Positions 6,917 to 15,264 of a stretch of DNA of 15,998 nucleotides are shown here, piece by piece. Source of the stretch: a virus. Taxonomy: Duplodnaviria; Heunggongvirae; Uroviricota; Caudoviricetes. A program made the position numbers and the translations under genes. The notes beneath the pieces are model-generated. The model was not told the DNA's origin and made no database searches. It saw nothing but the letters and a program-made list of their open reading frames with translations. How positions within the stretch are numbered: position 1 is the first letter of the stretch; each line of letters begins with the position of its first letter. The stretch covers positions 1-15,998 of the IMG/VR virus record IMGVR_UViG_2558860274_000005. One strand, 5' to 3'.

Positions 6917-8230
6917 TCATTCTCCTGTTCTGCCTGTATCACTGCCCACTTCATCCAGCCCCTTAACATCCTGCCACGGCCCGTCACCAAATCTGACCTG
7001 CAAATGCTGAAACATCCCCTGAACCTGTGTGGCATCTTTGGGGTCAAGAAAGGTCAGTCCGGTGATGAGCGCACCATCTGTATCCGGGAACCAGCCATAG
7101 CTGTTTGTCTCAATAATGCTCATCGGCCCCAGACGAAAACGGATTTGTGTCTCGCCCGGGTCTCCCTTCGGCCCCTGAGGTCCGGTAGCCCCCACCGGAC
7201 CTGCCGCTCCTGTTTCTCCTTTCGGTCCCTGTGGGCCTGCCGGGCCTGCTGCACCGGTATCTCCCTTTGGCCCCTGTGGACCTGTACTTCCCGTCAGACC
7301 GGTCTCTCCCCGTTCACCCCTGTCGCCTTTCGGCCCCTGCGGGCCTGCCGGACCAGTATCTCCTCTCGGCCCCCGTTCGCCGGTTGCCCCGACAGGGCCG
7401 GTGTCACCACGCTCTCCCTTATCCCCCTTCGGCCCCTGAGGGCCGGCGGGCCCCTGTTCCCCCTTTGGCCCGGGAGGTCCCACCACGGTGGGGATTCGGT
7501 TTACGGCGTCTTCCGCCGCTATCCTGCTTTGTTCCGCTGACTGTGCGCTTTCTGCTGACTCCCGGGCTTTTTCTGCTGCGGTCGTTGCATCCCTGGCTGC
7601 ATTACCGGCTGCACTTTCTGCCGTCTTTCTTGACAATTCAGCTTCTGCTGCACTTTGTGATGACTCACTGGCTTTTTGAGCGGCCGCAGAGGCCGAGGAC
7701 GAGGACGCCTCCTCTGACTGCTTTGCAGCGGCTGCACTTTCTGCCGCCTGCCGGGCTGACTCCGATGCCTCCCCTGCTGAAGTGTCAGCATTTGCAGCGC
7801 TCTCTTCTGCCTGACTGGCTGATATGCCGGCATTCCTCGCGGACGTCTCCGCCTCTCCGGCATTCTTCTTCGCCTCCTCAGCGTGACGCGCCACCTCTTC
7901 CACCATCAGTTCAAAGCGACGCAGTGCCTCCGGCCGGACGTCATCCTCCGACATGGCACCGAGAAAATCATTCAGCGTCCCCGGTTGAGAATCTTCATAC
8001 ACGGTGATGGTCCCGGCATGTGACGGAGGAAATCCCTCCACCAACAGAATGACGCTGTACTGACCGTACTCAACGTCCATGCTGTAACGACCGGCTTCAT
8101 CCGGATTTTCAGAGGCCACCGTGTTCACCACCACCGTGCTGCTGGTCCGTCTGGCTTTCAGTTGAATGGTGCAGTTCTCTACCGGTTTTCCTGTGCCGTC
8201 TTTCAGTACACCTGAAATCTTTACTGCCAT
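6917..8230 (-). CDS. stf: Side tail fibre protein with collagen-like repeats
   Basis: N-terminus [28 protein letters not shown]...[21 protein letters not shown] matches the phage lambda Stf N-terminal domain as I recall it. Followed by an Ala/Ser/Glu-rich segment, about 37 Gly-X-Y collagen-like triplets and a distinct C-terminal domain. ATG at 8228-8230 preferred over the upstream GTG. Confidence 0.9.
7151..7489 (-). repeat. Collagen-like Gly-X-Y triplet repeat region inside stf
   Basis: Protein segment [29 protein letters not shown]...[11 protein letters not shown]. The DNA is a GC-rich 9-bp-periodic repeat (GGNCCNNNN) that also generates long spurious ORFs on the opposite strand and in other frames. 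Confidence 0.8.
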
Positions 8231-8241
8231 ATTCACCCCAC

Positions 8242-8267
8242 AAAAAAGCCCGCCTGAACCGGCGGGC
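8242..8267 (-). terminator. Rho-independent terminator between lom and stf
   Basis: On the minus strand: GCCCGCC-GGTTCA-GGCGGGC followed by TTTTTT (plus-strand stem 8248-8267, A-run 8242-8247). Confidence 0.5.
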
Positions 8268-8294
8268 TGTCATAACACTGTGTTACCTGGCTAA

Positions 8295-8846
8295 TCAGAA
8301 CTTATAACCGACACCCACGATGAAACCGTCAGTGCGCCAGTCGCCACTGCCGGAGCCTTCATAAGCAATATCAATGGCCACGGATTCGGTCGGGTTAAAC
8401 TGCACGCCAGCTCCCCACGCCAGAGACGTGTTGCTGTGGCGACCGTCATCACTTCCGGTCAGCACATCGTGCGTTTTCCCCTTGTTGTCAGTTACGCGAA
8501 GATAATCCCCGGAGAAAGTCGACACACGGCTGTAAGCCACACCCGCCATCGCATACGCGCTGAACCATTCATTCACGCGCACAGACGGCCCCGCCATTAC
8601 GCTGAACCAGCGGTTACGAACGGAATCTTCATGCCAGCGGGTATCGCTGTAACGGGTCAGCTGGCGATTCTTGTCTCCTGCATAGCTGAATGACGTCACC
8701 AGCCCCAGTGTGTCCGTAAACTCATAACGGTATTTCACGTTAATCCCGTTCAGATCATCACTGCCGGGAACGTTCGTCGAGGCATGAAGATACCCCGCGC
8801 TCAGCGTGGACTGATGTTCAGACGCCCATGCAGGCGCACCGGATAC
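8295..8846 (-). pseudogene. lom: lom-like outer-membrane protein gene (Lom/Ail/PagC family), 5'-truncated and lacking its signal peptide
   Basis: Product ...GAPAWASEHQSTLSAGYLHASTNVPGSDDLNGINVKYRYEFTDTLGLVTSF...FIVGVGYKF matches lambda Lom. Homology continues upstream of the ORF-track start (GTG 8738) to about 8846, then hits an in-frame stop at 8868-8870 with no signal peptide or start codon. Confidence 0.75.
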
Positions 8847-9078
8847 CCTGGCGACGCGCCTTACGCGTTAACCAGCCTTCTGCTTCCAGCCGTGCGATAG
8901 CCGTTCTGACGGTACTCATCCCCGCGCCAATCTGGCGGGCAATGGTTTCAATTGATGGCCAACACACACCTTCGTCATTACTGAAATCAGCCAGGCGGGC
9001 CATAATTGCCACGCTGGATAACTTCATGCCTGACGCAGCGCAACCATCCCATACATAGCCGGTTAATTTAGTGCTCAT
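8818..9078 (-). pseudogene. Replication-protein-like HTH protein, N-terminal fragment fused out of frame to lom DNA
   Basis: ATG 9076-9078 with SD GAGG. The first ~77 aa (MSTKLTGYVWDGCAASGMKLSSVAIMARLADFSNDEGVCWPSIETIARQIGAGMSTVRTAIARLEAEGWLTRKARRQG) look like the winged-helix N-terminus of prophage replication-initiation proteins. The frame then runs into lom-derived sequence and stops after 86 aa. Confidence 0.5.
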
Positions 9079-9087
9079 GACCGACCT

Positions 9088-9426
9088 CTATTTCCCTGAA
9101 TTTACGACGAAACTGTTCGAGCGGGCTGAAGCACTCATGCTCATAGCCTTCGCGGAGGTAGATAACCCGTTGTGTTTCCGGTTCCCAACGAATGACTCTG
9201 ACGGGCACTCCGTAGTGATCTTTGAACCAGCGGTTAACTTGTTGCAAAGGACTGTCTCCTTCTGCCGGTTGAAATCACCCACAGCCCACTCTGCAAATCT
9301 GTGGGTTACAATTTCCCTGTCACCTGGTACATTCACTGCATAGCAATACTCCACCTTCGCTTTTCCACCCGGTACAGGAAGCGCAATCAGTTGCGAGCGA
9401 CGGTAGTGTGTTGTTAAACTGTTCAT
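9088..9426 (-). CDS. Hypothetical early-operon protein
   Basis: 112-aa ORF whose ATG (9424-9426) overlaps the stop of the upstream gene in an ATGA arrangement. Lies 9 nt upstream of the replication-protein start. No family recognised. The plus-strand ORF 9071-9343 is treated as its shadow. Confidence 0.35.
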
Positions 9427-10007
9427 GCGTTAGTTTCTCCACAACCAGAAGCAATCGACGCCACGACGCCCGGAGCTGCACACTCGCGGGCGTTACTCTT
9501 TTCCGGCGCACAAAAAACACGAAATAACAGTGTTAAATGCTCCTGCCACTTCGCCATTACTTGGTAGCTGTTCTCTTCGATTTGCTCACGCTCAGCCTGG
9601 TCAATAACTCCATCAGCAGTTGCCTTGCGTAAGTACTGGGAATGCTTGCCAATCCATTCTATTGACTCCATCAGCCGCTGATTAATGTCACCATTGTCAA
9701 TGTCATCAATGACCACCAGCGGCACAAACACCCCATTACTACGACGGGCTATTGCATCTGTTACATGCCTGGTACCACTGGCATCCTGTAAAACCATGGC
9801 CCACTCAAGTGGAAAAATTTGATCCCCACCGCTACGCAGTCTGTTATGCAATTGATCTTTTGCTGGGGTGATATCATCAGATTTATACAAACCAAGAATT
9901 TCTGCTGCTTCCTCATAGCCATGAGGTAAATCAGCAATCGTTCTTCGTATTGCTGCCACCAGCCATGCTGGTTGTTTATCAACTTTCCATTCAGGTTCTT
10001 TACCCAC
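9423..10007 (-). CDS. Phage regulatory protein, CII-like/YdaT-like (tentative)
   Basis: 194-aa ORF with a GTG start (10005-10007) and SD GAGGA at 7-nt spacing, immediately downstream of the cro-like gene. Family assignment is from position and size, not a confident sequence match. Confidence 0.45.
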
Positions 10008-10034
10008 GGTTAATTCCTCATTTCTGTGGTGTTT

Positions 10035-10232
10035 TTATGCCGCAGCACTGTTAGTCTTTTGATATAAAGACACGTCAACTTTCAGTTTCCCGTTAGTAAT
10101 TTTTTCTAACTGGTACGCTCGGCCTTCAGGAATAATCTCAGGCCACTCTGAAACAGACGGATGCTTAATACCTAGGGCTTCGGCGGTTTTACAAACTCCG
10201 CCGAAATAATTAATCACGTCGGATTTCCGCAT
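10035..10232 (-). CDS. cro: Cro-like small DNA-binding repressor
   Basis: 65-aa ORF divergent from the CI gene across an operator-rich intergenic region. SD GGAGA 5 nt upstream of ATG 10230-10232. Helix-turn-helix-like segment KTAEALGIKHPSVSEW. Confidence 0.65.
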   Translation of the reverse strand: MRKSDVINYFGGVCKTAEALGIKHPSVSEWPEIIPEGRAYQLEKITNGKLKVDVSLYQKTNSAAA

Positions 10233-10264
10233 TTCTGTCTCCCGTTAAATTACGTTAAGCAGAA

Positions 10265-10329
10265 ATGTAGGATATCCAACATGTCAATGTCAAGAATCCT
10301 ACATTGGCATGTGGTAGGATTGCCTACAT
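10265..10329. promoter_or_regulatory. OR-like operator cluster between the cro-like and CI genes
   Basis: Three related sites: ATGTAGGATATCCAACAT (10265-10282), ATGTCAAGAATCCTACAT (10287-10304, opposite orientation) and a GTAGGATTGCCTACAT palindrome (about 10313-10328). All share the half-site TAGGAT/ATCCTA. Confidence 0.5.
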
Positions 10330-10981
10330 GATGAACATGAGTGATCGTATTCGCCAAAGGCGAAAAGAACTGAACCTGACACAACAAGCACTGGCTGATT
10401 TGACTGGTGTGAACCGTGTCACGGTTACTGGATGGGAAAAGGACGACTACCAACCAAATGGAGCCAACCTTCAAGCCCTAGCCAACGCACTTAAATGCGA
10501 TCCTCTGTGGCTTGTTAGCGGAAAAGGCTCGCCTGAACCAAAGATAAATCTAAAACCTGAAATATTCGCAGTTAAAAAAGTCCCCCTCATCTCGTGGGTT
10601 CAGGCGGGTTCATGGACAATGACGGAGCCTGGTGTCAGGAAAGAAGATGCTGAAGAGTGGGTTTATACTACCGCCCTTGTATCAGAAATGGCATTTGCAC
10701 TACGGGTCCGTGGTGATTCAATGACCAATCCCCTCGGCTCACCATCGATACCAGAAGGTTCTATCGTTATCGTAGAGCCAGATATTATTGATACAGAGTG
10801 TATTAACGGAAAAATCGTTGTTGCCCATATCAATGGTGGGCAAGAAGCGACACTCAAAAAATTTGTTGAGGACTGGCCGAACAGGTATCTCGTCCCACTA
10901 AATCCTAACTATAAAACTATTGAATGCGGTGAGAACTGCAGAATAGTTGGTCTTGTCAAACAAGTAATAATGGATTTTTGA
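10328..10981 (+). CDS. cI: CI-like prophage repressor (N-terminal HTH plus C-terminal LexA-like S24 autopeptidase domain)
   Basis: HTH segment LTQQALADLTGVNRVTVTGWE. S24 catalytic Ser (RVRGDSMTNP) and Lys (EATLKKF). ATG 10328 is preceded by AGGA. The ORF track's TTG start at 10304 is probably too far upstream. Confidence 0.9.
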   Translation: MMNMSDRIRQRRKELNLTQQALADLTGVNRVTVTGWEKDDYQPNGANLQALANALKCDPLWLVSGKGSPEPKINLKPEIFAVKKVPLISWVQAGSWTMTEPGVRKEDAEEWVYTTALVSEMAFALRVRGDSMTNPLGSPSIPEGSIVIVEPDIIDTECINGKIVVAHINGGQEATLKKFVEDWPNRYLVPLNPNYKTIECGENCRIVGLVKQVIMDF

Positions 10982-11002
10982 CACATCTTCCTCACTATCG
11001 CA

Positions 11003-11027
11003 AAACCGGGGTATCCCCGGTTTTTTT
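11003..11027 (+). terminator. Rho-independent terminator downstream of cI
   Basis: CCGGGG-TAT-CCCCGG stem-loop (11006-11020) followed by TTTTTTT (11021-11027). Confidence 0.55.
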
Positions 11028-11043
11028 ATGAGCCTATCTTTTT

Positions 11044-11097
11044 ATGTAGGATAACCAACATAAACTCTTGACACTCACATGTTTGATATCCTACATT
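11044..11097 (+). promoter_or_regulatory. pL-like early-left promoter flanked by two operator sites
   Basis: Operator ATGTAGGATAACCAACAT (11044-11061), perfect -35 TTGACA (11068-11073), operator ATGTTTGATATCCTACAT (11079-11096) overlapping a -10-like TACATT. Same operator family as the cro/cI intergenic sites. Confidence 0.45.
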
Positions 11098-11438
11098 TGT
11101 TTTTAGAGTTGTGGTGAAGGCGCAGGCTGATGCGCGAAAGACATTGCAGCTATTGCGGAAAAGAGCTGTTCGGCGGGGCAATTAAACGCCCGTGAGAGTC
11201 TGAAATAACCGCAAGCCGGAGATCAGCACCGGTCACCACAACAGCCACTGCTTTGGCGGTACCAGTTTGTACACTTGCTTCCGGCTGGTACCGCTCTTTT
11301 TACAAAACAGAGAAGAGCATCACCGGACGACGGGCTCATAACCCAATCCATCCGGGCGGCTGCCACCGCAGGTGTTCTTCTCTGTTTTGTGGAGAAACCA
11401 ACCGACCTTGCAGGGTCGATATGATGAGGAGCAGCAAA

Positions 11439-11801
11439 ATGGCTAGCGAACGCAGTACTGATGTGCAGGCATTTATCGGGGAGCTGGACGGCGGCGTATT
11501 TGAAACCAAAATCGGCGCAGTTCTCAGTGAAGTCGCTTCCGGTGTGATGAACACGAAAACCAAAGGGAAGGTCTCACTCAACCTGGAAATCGAACCATTT
11601 GATGAGAACCGTGTGAAAATCAAACACAAACTCTCATATGTTCGCCCGACTAACCGCGGGAAAATTTCCGAAGAAGACACCACCGAAACGCCGATGTATG
11701 TCAATCGCGGTGGTCGCCTGACTATTCTGCAGGAAGACCAGGGACAATTACTGACTCTTGCCGGTGAACCTGACGGAAAACTCCGCGCAGCAGGTCATTA
11801 A
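11439..11801 (+). CDS. YfdP-like prophage protein (120 aa)
   Basis: ATG 11439 preceded by AGGAG (11427-11431). The longer ORF-track version (from 11253) has an implausible Cys/Arg-rich leader. Size and position match YfdP of the KplE1/CPS-53 prophage as I recall it; assignment is from context and length. Confidence 0.6.
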   Translation: MASERSTDVQAFIGELDGGVFETKIGAVLSEVASGVMNTKTKGKVSLNLEIEPFDENRVKIKHKLSYVRPTNRGKISEEDTTETPMYVNRGGRLTILQEDQGQLLTLAGEPDGKLRAAGH

Positions 11802-11866
11802 TATCGTTCTTAATTAACTGATTATTTATCTCATCACTGAATATCTTTATATAGTGAGGACTTATT

Positions 11867-12691
11867 ATGTCTCAGAACTTAGACGCAACCGCAATTAATC
11901 AAATCCATGCCCTTATTTCTGCTCAGGGTGTTAATGAAATTATCAGTAAGATTGGTGCCGACGCAGTGGCATTACCTGAAAATTTCCGCATTCATGATCT
12001 GGAAAAATTTAATTTAAATCGCTTCCGTTTCCGTGGTGCGCTTTCCACTGCCAGCATCGATGACTTTACCCGTTATTCTAAAGATCTTGCAGATGAAGGC
12101 ACCCGCTGCTTTATCGATGCCGATAATATGCGAGCCGTCAGTGTGCTTAACCTGGGTACTATTGATGAACCAGGTCACGCAGATAACACCGCCACTCTCA
12201 AACTGAAAAAGACAGCACCGTTCTCTGCCCTGTTGTCTGTTAACGGCGAGCGTAACTCCCAGAAGTCACTGGCAGAATGGATCGAAGACTGGGCCGACTA
12301 CCTTGTGGGCTTTGATGCTAATGGTGATGCCATTCAGGCAACAAAAGCGGCTGCGGCAGTCCGTAAAATCACGATTGAAGCAAACCAGACCGCTGATTTT
12401 GAAGATAATGACTTCAGCGGCAAACGCTCCCTGATGGAGTCTGTCGAAGCGAAGACCAAAGATATTATGCCTGTGGCATTTGAATTTAAATGCGTTCCGT
12501 TTGAAGGCCTGAAAGAACGTCCGTTTAAATTACGCCTCAGCATTATCACTGGCGATCGTCCTGTACTGGTTCTGCGCATTATTCAGCTGGAAGCGGTGCA
12601 GGAAGAAATGGCTAACGAATTTCGTGATCTGCTTGTTGAGAAATTCAAAGACAGCAAAGTAGAAACCTTCATTGGTACTTTCATCGCCTGA
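11867..12691 (+). CDS. YfdQ-like protein (DUF2303 family)
   Basis: 274-aa ORF, the same length as E. coli YfdQ, in the yfdP-yfdQ-yfdR gene order. Function unknown. Confidence 0.7.
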
Positions 12692-12818
12692 TTTCATTAC
12701 TGCAAATGCCCCTGCGGGGGCATTTATGGAAACGTAATTAACTCAATAATCACCGGATGGTGAGGGCTTCCTTTTACCAGAATTCAGCGTGGTGCAGCAC
12801 ATATACGTGGAGAACAAA

Positions 12819-13355
12819 ATGTCATTTATTAAAACTTTTTCCGGGAAGCATTTTTATTATGACAGGATAAATAAAGACAACATCGATATTAACGATATCG
12901 CGGTTTCCCTTTCAAATATCTGTCGCTTTGCCGGTCATCTTTCACACTTCTACAGCGTCGCCCAACATGCGGTGCTTTGCAGCCAGCTGGTGCCGCAGGA
13001 ATTTGCTTTTGAAGCGTTAATGCATGATGCAACAGAAGCGTATTGCCAGGACATCCCCGCGCCACTGAAACGCCTTCTTCCTGACTATAAACGGATGGAA
13101 GAAAAAATAGACGCCGTAATCCGTGAGAAATACGGGTTACCCCCGGTTATGAGTACGCCCGTGAAATATGCCGATCTCATCATGCTGGCAACCGAACGCC
13201 GCGATCTCGGGCTTGATGATGGCTCTTTCTGGCCTGTACTGGAAGGCATCCCGGCAACAGAGATGTTCAAAGTTATTCCACTGTCACCAGGCCATGCCTA
13301 CGGGATGTTTATGGAACGTTTTAACGAGTTATCGGAGTTACGCAAATGCGCATGA
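12819..13355 (+). CDS. YfdR-like HD-domain phosphohydrolase (5'-deoxynucleotidase family)
   Basis: 178 aa from ATG 12819, with GGAG 6 nt upstream. Conserved HD-domain residues are visible (His in CRFAGHLSHFYSVAQH, and the HD pair in EALMHDATEAY). Length matches YfdR. Confidence 0.8.
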   Translation: MSFIKTFSGKHFYYDRINKDNIDINDIAVSLSNICRFAGHLSHFYSVAQHAVLCSQLVPQEFAFEALMHDATEAYCQDIPAPLKRLLPDYKRMEEKIDAVIREKYGLPPVMSTPVKYADLIMLATERRDLGLDDGSFWPVLEGIPATEMFKVIPLSPGHAYGMFMERFNELSELRKCA

Positions 13356-13867
13356 ATGTTTTCGAAATGGAAGGGTTTCTTCGCGGGAAATGTGTACCGC
13401 GAGATCTGAAAGTGAACGAAACAAATGCTGAGTACCTAGTACGTAAGTTCGACGCGCTTGAAGCTAAATGCGAGACGCTGGCGGCGGAGAATGCGCGGCT
13501 GAATAAATTTATCGTACAGAGTTGCTATGTGTTTAATGGCGAGCAGGATGAAATATCTGATGCGTATATCTGCGCAGCAGGCGGAGGTATGCCGCAAATT
13601 CCAGCCACCGATGCTTTTCTGGCTGAAATTCGTGCGGAGGCTCGCAACGAGGGAATTAACTATACCGCAAGTCGTCTTGCTGCAGCTTTCAACCACGGAT
13701 TTATCAATAAGTCTTTACGTGAAGTTTTCGACGTTACGCGCATGATTCTGTCAGCGAAAGAAGAGTTAGCTAATGAACCGCATCCGATTGATGGCCTGTC
13801 CGGTGAATATGCGGAGAAATCCCTTGAAGAATGGGCGGAGCAGATTCGCAAAGGAGGCAACCAGTGA
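13346..13867 (+). CDS. Hypothetical early-operon protein (possibly Ead/Ea22-like)
   Basis: 173-aa ORF translationally coupled to the upstream gene (ATGA overlap with its stop at 13353-13355). Predicted coiled-coil segment (EAKCETLAAENARLNKF). Family call tentative. Confidence 0.45.
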   Translation: MRMNVFEMEGFLRGKCVPRDLKVNETNAEYLVRKFDALEAKCETLAAENARLNKFIVQSCYVFNGEQDEISDAYICAAGGGMPQIPATDAFLAEIRAEARNEGINYTASRLAAAFNHGFINKSLREVFDVTRMILSAKEELANEPHPIDGLSGEYAEKSLEEWAEQIRKGGNQ

Positions 13868-14352
13868 CTGGACATGCAGCAATCCTCGACATGTGCTGTG
13901 GCAGTCGCATGTTCTGGTTCGATAAGAATGACGACCGGGCGATATTTAGCGACATCAGAAAGGAAGAGCACACATTATGTGATGGACGACGCCTGATAAT
14001 TAGCCCTGACCTGATAGCAGATTTTCGTGCATTACCATTTGCAGACGCATCGTTTCCGGTTGTTGTATTCGACCCTCCGCATCTTGAGCGTGTTGGTGAT
14101 AACGCCTGGATGGGAAAGAAATATGGACGGCTGAATAAAGATACCTGGCGTGATGATTTGCGGCAGGGATTTAAAGAAGCCTTTCGTGTGTTGTGGCCAA
14201 ACGGTGTTCTGGTTTTTAAATGGAATGAAACGCAAATACCGGTAAGCCAGATTTTGGCACTGACAGACAGAAAACCTGTTATCGGTCAACGAACAGGAAA
14301 AAACGATAAAACCCACTGGATTATTTTTATGAAAGAGGCAACCAGTGAGTAA
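13864..14352 (+). CDS. Putative phage DNA methyltransferase (SAM-dependent, amino-methyltransferase type)
   Basis: GTG 13864 overlaps the upstream stop (GTGA) and is preceded by AGGAGG (13852-13857). Product has a SAM-binding-like motif (ILDMCCGSRMF) and a DPPH tetrapeptide (VVVFDPPH) resembling motif IV, (D/N/S)PP(Y/F/W/H), of N6-adenine/N4-cytosine methyltransferases. Confidence 0.5.
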   Translation: MTGHAAILDMCCGSRMFWFDKNDDRAIFSDIRKEEHTLCDGRRLIISPDLIADFRALPFADASFPVVVFDPPHLERVGDNAWMGKKYGRLNKDTWRDDLRQGFKEAFRVLWPNGVLVFKWNETQIPVSQILALTDRKPVIGQRTGKNDKTHWIIFMKEATSE

Positions 14353-14656
14353 TTATCTGTACTGGTCTGGCTTAGTGGCTAACATCGCGCTCATGTTGTT
14401 CGTGGCTCTTTGCATCTGGGTTTGGTTTATCTGGCCTTTTGTAGAGGCCATGAGCATAACTCGGTGCTTTATTTGCGCATCAAAGACTTCTGGATGCAAA
14501 CCAACTGTAAGAGCAATTATCAGAACTTTAAAATACTGGTATCTGGATTTGCTTTTCGGCAGGGGCTGGACGCGAATTAGTAACCGCCAGTTTGAATGGG
14601 AAGGCGTCGGTAACTGGCGAATTCACAGCAGCAAAGAAACGCAGGAGGTGAAGTAA
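14345..14656 (+). CDS. Small predicted membrane protein
   Basis: 103-aa ORF with a GTG start overlapping the upstream gene end; hydrophobic N-terminal segment (LVANIALMLFVALCIWVWFIWPFV). Confidence 0.4.
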   Translation: MSNYLYWSGLVANIALMLFVALCIWVWFIWPFVEAMSITRCFICASKTSGCKPTVRAIIRTLKYWYLDLLFGRGWTRISNRQFEWEGVGNWRIHSSKETQEVK

Positions 14657-15228
14657 TGAATAACTTAATGATCGACCTTGAGACGATGGGGAAAAATAAG
14701 GATGCACCGATCGTTTCCATTGGCGCGGTGTTCTTCACTCCAGAAACCGGAGACATCGGACAAGAATTCTATACGGTTGTTAGCCTGGAAAGTGCTATGG
14801 GGCAAGGAGCTACACCTGACGGCGATACCATCCTGTGGTGGTTGAAACAAAGCCCTGAAGCACGAGCTGCAATCTGTATTGATGATACTTTGTCGATCAG
14901 CGATGCTCTCTCAGAACTAAATCATTTCATTAACCGGCACGCAGACAATACGAAATATTTAAAAGTCTGGGGTAACGGAGCCACCTTCGACAACGTAATT
15001 TTACGTGGAGCTTATGAGCGAGCAGGACAAATCTGCCCGTGGGCATACTGGAATGACCACGATGTACGCACGATCGTTACGCTTGGGTGTTCCATCGGAT
15101 TCGACCCCAAAATGGACATGCCTTTCGATGGCGAACGGCACAACGCCCTGGCTGATGCCCGTCATCAGGCAAAATATGTTTCCGCTATCTGGCAGAAATT
15201 AATTCCTGCCACCAGCACAGAATTATGA
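14656..15228 (+). CDS. DnaQ-like (DEDD family) 3'-5' exonuclease
   Basis: 190-aa ORF with the Exo I motif (MIDLETMG), central acidic motif (FDNVIL) and Exo III H-x4-D motif (HNALADA). ATG overlaps the upstream stop (TAATG-type coupling). Confidence 0.8.
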   Translation: MNNLMIDLETMGKNKDAPIVSIGAVFFTPETGDIGQEFYTVVSLESAMGQGATPDGDTILWWLKQSPEARAAICIDDTLSISDALSELNHFINRHADNTKYLKVWGNGATFDNVILRGAYERAGQICPWAYWNDHDVRTIVTLGCSIGFDPKMDMPFDGERHNALADARHQAKYVSAIWQKLIPATSTEL

Positions 15229-15264
15229 TTTTCCCGGGTGCAGCCGGTTTTGATGGAGAAAATT

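Follow-up and report, generated by a model that had tools for sequence, protein, structure and literature searches.

The prophage of Escherichia albertii KF1 bears a scar at which the first 78 codons of a replication-initiator gene (rep) run directly into a lom gene that has lost its beginning, and the rep side of this scar lies at a nucleotide where many other prophages have been broken as well. The explanation we regard as highly probable, taken as a whole, is that the element is a lambdoid remnant left by a rep-lom deletion of about 27 kb whose rep end fell at a hot spot, and that deletions of this kind originate by an exchange at a TA dinucleotide. A single internal deletion would have joined rep codon 78/79 to lom codon 17, with the crossover inside a shared GTA that is flanked by a further CCG match. 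The window analyzed here is a stretch of 15,998 nucleotides; all positions refer to it unless another locus is named, and a slash within a DNA sequence marks a crossover point.

The first-pass annotation of the window had noted that, on the minus strand, a replication-protein-like ORF stays plausible through LTRKARRQG and changes character at about 8845, and had suggested aligning both flanks to intact relatives. A three-way alignment of the window with intact rep and lom bore this out and pinpointed the deletion junction at 8840..8846 (minus strand). The truncated initiator ORF (8818..9078, minus strand; 86 amino acids), defined from the ORF list and Pfam, consists of rep codons 1-78 of 313 (MSTKL...TRKARRQG) followed by eight codons contributed by out-of-frame lom DNA (IRCACMGV) and a TGA stop. 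Our reference for the full-length gene was the 313-residue initiator of Escherichia coli EC43 (WP_000104954.1; L004, 8298..9239), to which the window is 98% identical in nucleotide sequence down the minus strand as far as 8844; position 8843 is mismatched, and 8842-8840 match again. At the junction the rep parent reads ...CGCCAGGGTA/ACCGCAATG and the lom parent reads ...CTGGCCGTA/TCCGGTGCG; the exact overlap common to both is the microhomology GTA (8846-8844), followed by one mismatch and then CCG (8842-8840), a parental match of 6/7 when extended over GTAWCCG. The HTH_36 winged-helix domain is complete within the 86-residue ORF (residues 22-70; Pfam, E=3.9e-12), accompanied by weaker GntR, DnaD_N and RP-C matches typical of replication initiators. 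The intact relative also has initiator residues 79-313 and repeats of TCAAAATCTGAC-type DNA, and the window has neither.

On the other side of the junction, the lom remnant (8295..8846, minus strand; alignment to intact lom and Pfam Ail_Lom) comprises codons 17-199 and the stop codon and is 100% identical over 552 nt (8846 to 8295) to the intact 199-residue lom of E. coli 22-250 (L003, 16112..16711). The frame 8295..8861 (minus strand) matches the Ail_Lom β-barrel (PF06316) at profile positions 17-199 of 199 (E=1e-111). Intact Lom has 199 residues, beginning MHKVCAAILSAAICLAVSGAPAWA and continuing SEHQ, and the window copy begins at V17; missing are residues 1-16 (MHKVCAAILSAAICLA), that is, the start codon and most of the signal peptide. 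When the lom frame was scanned for ATG, GTG or TTG, none occurred before 8738, where a GTG is the first in-frame start, in agreement with the earlier description of a Lom frame with neither start codon nor signal peptide. Judged from this alignment, the remnant is a dead pseudogene and not a functional member of the Ail/Lom family. The same description had spoken of a fusion of a rep N-terminus to lom, which is right for the DNA but does not extend to protein: the lom frame is +1 with respect to that of rep, which precludes a rep-Lom fusion protein.

The abruptness of the junction, and nothing else, could suggest faulty assembly or sequencing, or a chimeric join between two unrelated loci, and sequencing error was the alternative that the first-pass annotation had itself raised. 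The junction-specific 86-residue protein is encoded on four independent assemblies, namely the complete genome CP007025.1 and three unrelated metagenome contigs from ENA, and a de Bruijn assembler cannot join through a 3-nt overlap. Because the junction recurs in four independent assemblies we conclude that it is not an artefact, and we consider the probability of one to be negligible. A search with the exact junction 43-mer in one genome per species gave no match, the species representative being without the junction.

CP007025 is Escherichia albertii KF1 (PMC3907721), and the window was not found in the complete E. coli genome set that we searched. Its two halves have separate close relatives in E. 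coli: a prophage end in strain 22-250 shares 99.8% identity with the left half (1184-8846), and the right half (8840-15998) is ∼98% identical to prophages such as that of EC43. The intact relatives are dusA-integrase prophages, in which the gene order runs dusA, int, cargo, tail fiber, lom, J and on through tail, head and terminase genes, and continues with lysis, Q, nin, rep, DUF4222, ymfM, ymfL, cro, cI, yfdPQRS and so on to dusA'. The intact prophage of 22-250 contains the same int-cargo-stf-lom module as the window, and its rep stop and lom start lie about 26.6 kb apart; from this gap and the missing parts of both genes we obtain a deletion of ∼27 kb, a figure that is an estimate, the late/cargo half best matching 22-250 and the early half best matching EC43. 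Instead of a single deletion, the history could conceivably have had two steps, or two prophages could have exchanged DNA.

By these comparisons the KF1 scar is a real internal deletion of ∼27 kb in an E. albertii prophage. Measured against the intact relatives, what was deleted is the C-terminal two thirds of the initiator, the presumed origin iterons, nin, Q, the lysis, terminase, head and tail genes, and the start and signal peptide of lom; what was retained is the immunity region, the early left operon, the side tail fiber, the DUF4765 cargo and the integrase. The earlier proposal that the rest of rep and the morphogenetic region had been removed is therefore upheld as far as it went, but the loss was wider, taking the origin iterons, nin, Q and lysis too. 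Since these genes were lost, the KF1 element would be unable to replicate, to lyse the cell or to make particles. The prophage is cryptic, as had been claimed: the whole element spans ∼15.5 kb between two halves of rpiB, and its gene list contains no packaging, head or tail-shaft genes.

The immunity region, early operon and cargo had been thought to look intact, and the ORFs for the repressor, cro, the ymfL-like and ymfM-like genes, DUF4222, the early left operon and DUF4765 are indeed open. The DUF4222 gene (9068..9247, minus strand; Pfam) overlaps the rep start with its 3' end, so that the coupled arrangement is kept. It is followed upstream by a 112-residue ymfM-like ORF (9088..9426, minus strand; ORF list) in the same position as ymfM in e14, a 194-residue YmfL/CII-like regulator (9423..10007, minus strand; Pfam Phage_CP76 and annotation of relatives), a 65-residue Cro-like repressor (10035..10232, minus strand; Pfam P22_Cro, E=7.6e-22) and a CI-like repressor of the LexA family (10304..10981, plus strand; Pfam HTH_3 and Peptidase_S24). 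Close to the far end of the prophage, as in E. coli relatives, there is a YafO-family toxin gene (15564-15998, minus strand). Downstream of lom, the retained side tail fiber gene (6917..8236, minus strand; phage_tail_N, collagen repeats and Phage_fiber_C) is contiguous with lom in the intact relative 22-250 also. Its collagen-like Gly-X-Y block (window 7000-8000) has 62% GC, the highest in the window, and a long antisense ORF within the gene (7231..8007) is probably a composition artefact. The DUF4765 cargo gene (2818..6222, plus strand; Pfam; 1134 amino acids) has a computed GC content of about 31-36%; it is placed, intact, between the integrase and the tail-fiber remnants, is horizontally acquired and accompanies the same integrase in several E. 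coli strains from chicken and human isolates. A second decay patch, at 6307-6915 between cargo and stf, holds a transposase-gene fragment, a frameshifted tail-assembly fragment and a separate 89-residue ORF for a tail-fiber C terminus; because it is also present in the otherwise intact 22-250 prophage, this patch predates the big deletion.

The integrase is of the dusA-family tyrosine type (1388..2485, plus strand; Pfam), and the same gene adjoins dusA in E. coli 22-250 and EC43; elements with dusA-specific integrases form the family described by Farrugia et al. 2015 (PMC4482086). In 22-250 the integrase and its flank, at 99.8% nucleotide identity, sit at dusA. The KF1 element is not in dusA; it splits rpiB, with 124 codons on the far side and the 3' end at window ∼1140-1203 (L005, 1950-2525). 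Sequence comparison placed the left prophage/host junction (1184..1203, no strand assigned) in the 3' end of rpiB, at a pseudo-attB resembling the dusA site, and the ORF at 1135..1299 (minus strand) is a hybrid of a phage-borne dusA-like N-terminus and rpiB DNA. The rpiB crossover in KF1 reads TGTGCGCCCAGCCAC/GCATAGG, compared with TGTCCGTCCAGTCGA/GCATAGG in dusA (17 of 22 nt alike). The KF1 prophage has probably integrated at a secondary attachment site.

The rep side of the KF1 scar is not particular to KF1. We seeded a protein survey with the 86-residue ORF and found, among the 201 candidates listed, at least 120 short proteins (76-149 amino acids) that share its N-terminus; the relative usage of rep break sites taken from this seeded survey is semi-quantitative. 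The last residue shared with the intact initiator was residue 78 in 54 of the 120 clusters listed and residue 79-80 in a further 28, whose partners happen to continue AAC and make the crossover ambiguous, and no other last shared residue accounted for more than 4 clusters among the 120. Breaks outside TA fell at codons 83-132 among these matches, mostly as single clusters, most of them frameshifts in the iteron repeats. The tails that follow G78 are fragments, both in frame and out of frame, of RusA, DUF968, Q, methylase, terminase, capsid, tail fiber, lom, the rep C terminus and IS3 orfA, and when mapped to intact phage DNA they define at least 46-48 distinct partner sites. In one reference phage 25 of 26 partner sites are on the sense strand, 0.7-27 kb downstream, so the mapped junctions are simple deletions. 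The one antisense site of the 26 (protein P0081) may represent a rare inversion or another gene arrangement in the source.

DNA-level scans gave 14 distinct junctions after ...GGGTA, in which the left side is kept, and 5 distinct ones of the opposite kind, with the right side retained from ACCGC onward. Together with the protein survey, these scans showed a rep breakpoint that is recurrent, nucleotide-precise and two-sided, reached by dozens of independent deletions; it looks like a sequence-specific hot spot, 5'-CGCCAGGGTA/ACCGC-3', at rep codon 78/79. A metagenome scan for the left flank followed by a base other than A returned 5 loci, too few for statistics, and in a small unseeded IMG/VR sample 2 of 119 loci broke at the hot spot versus 2 in the iteron region. 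In the literature that we searched, with partial coverage, we found no description of the hot spot or of the partner motif presented below, and both appear to be undescribed. Farther down the intact rep gene, at codons ∼100-130 (L004, ∼8900-8990), repeated TCAAAATCTGAC(C/G)C-type DNA encodes a SDSDPSKSDASKSDPSKFDASKS linker; these repeats presumably are the origin iterons, and many rep variants in the database are frameshifted within them (last shared residue 95-109).

The partner sites share a motif, numbered here so that position 0 is the T in GGT, rep codon 78. TA occupies 0,+1 in 36 of 44 partner sites listed (P=8e-42, judged by how often TA occurs in phage DNA); the other favored bases are G at -2 (31/46) and -3 (22/46), and C at +3 (29/46) and -4 (24/46). 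Positions -1 and +2 are weakly constrained, and there is little information outside about -5..+6. The partner TA often stands within G-N-T-A-N-C: G.TA.C occurs at 14 of the 36 TA-bearing partners listed, compared with an 8.8% share among all TA sites of phage DNA (P=1e-6). Every junction has the rep base at -1 and the partner base at +2, which places strand exchange inside the TA. Within the 942 nt of rep, G.TA.C is found only three times, at codons 60, 70 and 78, and each of these sites is a recurrent break point of large deletions. In the reference phage two sites match CGG[AT]?TA[AT]?CCG and both are used as partners, and the lom partner in the window (CCGTA/TCCGG) fits the right half of the motif. 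Scars in K-12 that do not involve rep are TA-centered as well, with the overlap GGTA between portal and baseplate J in e14 and TAC between methylase and tail fiber in CPS-53; e14's own rep junction uses GGT, not TA.

These features suggest that the deletions may arise by RecA-independent breakage and rejoining, with exchange within the TA dinucleotide between (C)GG-N-TA-N-CC(G)-like sites, and that cells losing lethal late genes would then survive. Selection very likely acts after the event, the loss of lysis and late genes rescuing the lysogen. We put forward, tentatively, that an unrecognized sequence-specific activity could break and rejoin DNA within the TA of (C)GG-N-TA-N-CC(G) and so repeatedly disarm Escherichia prophages of the e14, CPS-53 and dusA lineages, with rep codon 78/79, beside the origin, as its favorite site.

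The junction had first been read as an illegitimate-recombination scar, and the short overlap supports that reading to the extent that 3 nt of exact microhomology is what ordinary illegitimate joins have; other breakpoints are also scattered in the same rep gene. That a one-off random event coincides with the other scars by chance is nonetheless extremely improbable, given that one and the same rep nucleotide has been joined to no fewer than 44 different partner sites, that e14 and CPS-53 share the breakpoint and that TA is present in 36/44 partner sites listed; the rep-side breakpoint is recurrent and nucleotide-precise and not a one-off. Selection in place of mutation bias, favoring cells that keep the 78-residue winged-helix fragment, for example as an exclusion factor binding incoming origins, would agree with retention of the complete HTH_36 domain (residues 22-70) and of the fragment's translational coupling to DUF4222, but it cannot yield single-nucleotide precision or a TA motif at the partners, and in CPS-53 and at four other junctions it is the opposite side alone that survives; we consider such selection highly unlikely. 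Cleavage by DNA gyrase or topoisomerase IV, through subunit exchange or through repair of poisoned cleavage complexes, has an attraction in that quinolones also induce prophages, and Ikeda and co-workers reportedly established gyrase-mediated illegitimate recombination. The arms that flank the cut in the published gyrase consensus (GGTAT and ATACC) resemble the G-G-T-A-Y-C motif. When 47 partners and the rep site were compared, crudely, with the 133-bp consensus string, the match was weak (z<=2.75 for the arms and z<=1.8 for the rep site), and a 4-bp stagger would put the exchange at either edge of NTAN and not inside the TA; we regard gyrase as a rather slim prospect.

A replication error is a less remote candidate, although we still think it unlikely. 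Here a fork or nascent strand would halt at the rep site, and its 3' end would re-anneal to a short, imperfect GG.TA.CC repeat farther downstream, be proofread to the TA and be extended by copy-choice; Bierne, Ehrlich and Michel reportedly described copy-choice deletion at the terB hot spot in 1991. This would suit the almost exclusive occurrence of deletions in direct orientation, the resemblance of partner flanks to the rep site on both sides and the position of that site beside the presumed origin, with iterons ∼75 nt downstream. It would leave unexplained the codon 60 and 70 sites and the TA-centered junctions elsewhere in the phage, the events that retain the right side are less well explained, a template jump of 27 kb is long, and there is no stable hairpin at the site, where the single-strand fold, examined for a hairpin or cruciform, was no better than shuffles (z=-0.24). 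An enzyme making a 2-bp exchange at the central TA of GG-N-TA-N-CC-like sites, so that the left half of one is joined to the right half of another, is a possibility that we entertain with reserve, and with the same reserve the agent might be a dimeric recombinase, a transposase-like protein or a nuclease, working by a 2-nt stagger of the serine-recombinase type or through TA sticky ends resealed by ligase. Such an exchange fits the crossover geometry best, with -1 from rep and +2 from the partner; constraint falls on the symmetric positions -2 and +3 and not on the adjacent -1 and +2, the motif is roughly palindromic, the retained side may be the left or the right, and the sites of the reference phage that match the motif best are used. 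Against it, no recombinase gene was common to the affected prophages in the annotations compared, inversions, expected from a free recombinase, are nearly absent (1/26), the e14 junction is without the A, the flanks partly mirror rep's own sequence so that plain imperfect homology could also account for the joins, and a serine recombinase would call for extended dyad half-sites, which these sites do not have. We know of no enzyme that carries out TA-centered exchange at GG-N-TA-N-CC sites.

Several specific agents were set aside. Use of the hot spot as a secondary site by the integrase was rejected, since the att core GCATAGGAGCAATG... is unrelated to GGGTAACC and the affected prophages carry different integrases. 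Origin from an IS end or IS excision was rejected as well: an IS stood at the site in 0 of 126 left-flank sequences, and the single partner from an IS falls mid-gene in an IS3 orfA, away from the IS ends. Rpn nucleases are reported to act without sequence specificity, and by-eye comparison with BstEII (GGTNACC), Dcm/EcoRII (CCWGG), EcoKI, the Ter core, the DnaA box and IHF sites found none that fits both cut position and partner motif. The search for a second cognate copy of the hot site in the phage gave a best match of 17/26, which is chance level.

The scar, taken alone, makes the E. albertii prophage a domesticated remnant with immunity, early genes and DUF4765 cargo. What carries further is the repeated breakage at a single nucleotide across many independent lineages, among them the two K-12 cryptic prophages that have been studied best; because the breakpoint recurs and the partners share a TA-centered motif, decay of these prophages follows a preferred molecular route and not random erosion. 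If a TA-specific activity is responsible, prophage domestication would be partly deterministic and the architecture of e14 and CPS-53 would be explained, and the preferred deletion route could reveal the activity that turns dangerous prophages into harmless gene carriers.

Two classes of known systems resemble the hot spot. The terB deletion hot spot and the hot spot for lambda bio transducing phages are sites of short-homology-dependent illegitimate recombination, and they have in common with the rep site deletions that look RecA-independent, one recurrent end precise to the nucleotide and overlaps of 2-4 nt. The rep site differs in having many partners with a palindromic TA-centered motif and spaced constraints, in that either side may be kept, and in that no arrest protein or structure is known there. 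Serine invertases such as Cin and Gin recombine quasi-sites, secondary sites that share the central dinucleotide, and the likeness is that a favored site recombines with many others of weak similarity that have its 2-bp core. Sites of the Din family, however, have AA/GA cores and a CC..GG polarity, opposite to the GG..CC of the rep motif, and the invertases of this family give inversions and need an enhancer, and no invertase is common to the affected prophages.

The closest comparisons are other prophage scars. In CPS-53 (KpLE1) of K-12, the oweS/yfdO pseudogene derives from the same gene, broken within one nucleotide of the KF1 position and with TA at the junction (...CATCATA/ACCGCAATG), but it retains the other half of the gene: rep from codon 79 onward is joined to the yfdP upstream region, the immunity region and the N-terminal part of rep having been deleted. 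The independent rep-lom and rep-J scars of the E. coli strains Ec-U11 and Survcare253 have, like KF1, the immunity region, DUF4222 and a truncated rep followed by lom/stf, with cargo and integrases that differ from those of KF1. In Ec-U11 the rep break is at exactly the KF1 nucleotide, but the partner is lom nt 244 (overlap TA); Survcare253 breaks at the GCTATC site of codon 60 and joins a GATAAC site in J. Survcare253 (L002, 6806-7090) has at least two nested scars, with rep codon 60 joined to J at GATA/ACCGCC and J broken again at GATA/ACCGAA; both J sites resemble the rep hot site TA/ACCGC. In e14, oweE (L152, 5171-5404) is exactly 234 nt long and is fused at CAGGGT/GATGG to the terminase gene aaaE, the product (ymfN) being annotated as a "chimeric replication protein/phage terminase YmfN". 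The oweE and oweS pseudogenes of K-12 (oweS at L128, 5002-5709) are complementary halves of one gene family, severed at the same nucleotide, with codons 1-78 in e14 and 79-313 in CPS-53. The e14 and KF1 scars differ in partner (large terminase, in frame and annotated as a chimera, as opposed to lom, out of frame), in overlap (GGT as opposed to GTA) and in integrase and attachment site (icd as opposed to the rpiB/dusA family). They agree in gene family, in the 78 codons kept, in the ymfL-ymfM-rep order upstream and in the direct joining of the rep N-terminus to a late gene by internal deletion, and the KF1 scar is an ordinary case of the e14 ymfN/oweE type of internal deletion in a lambdoid prophage.
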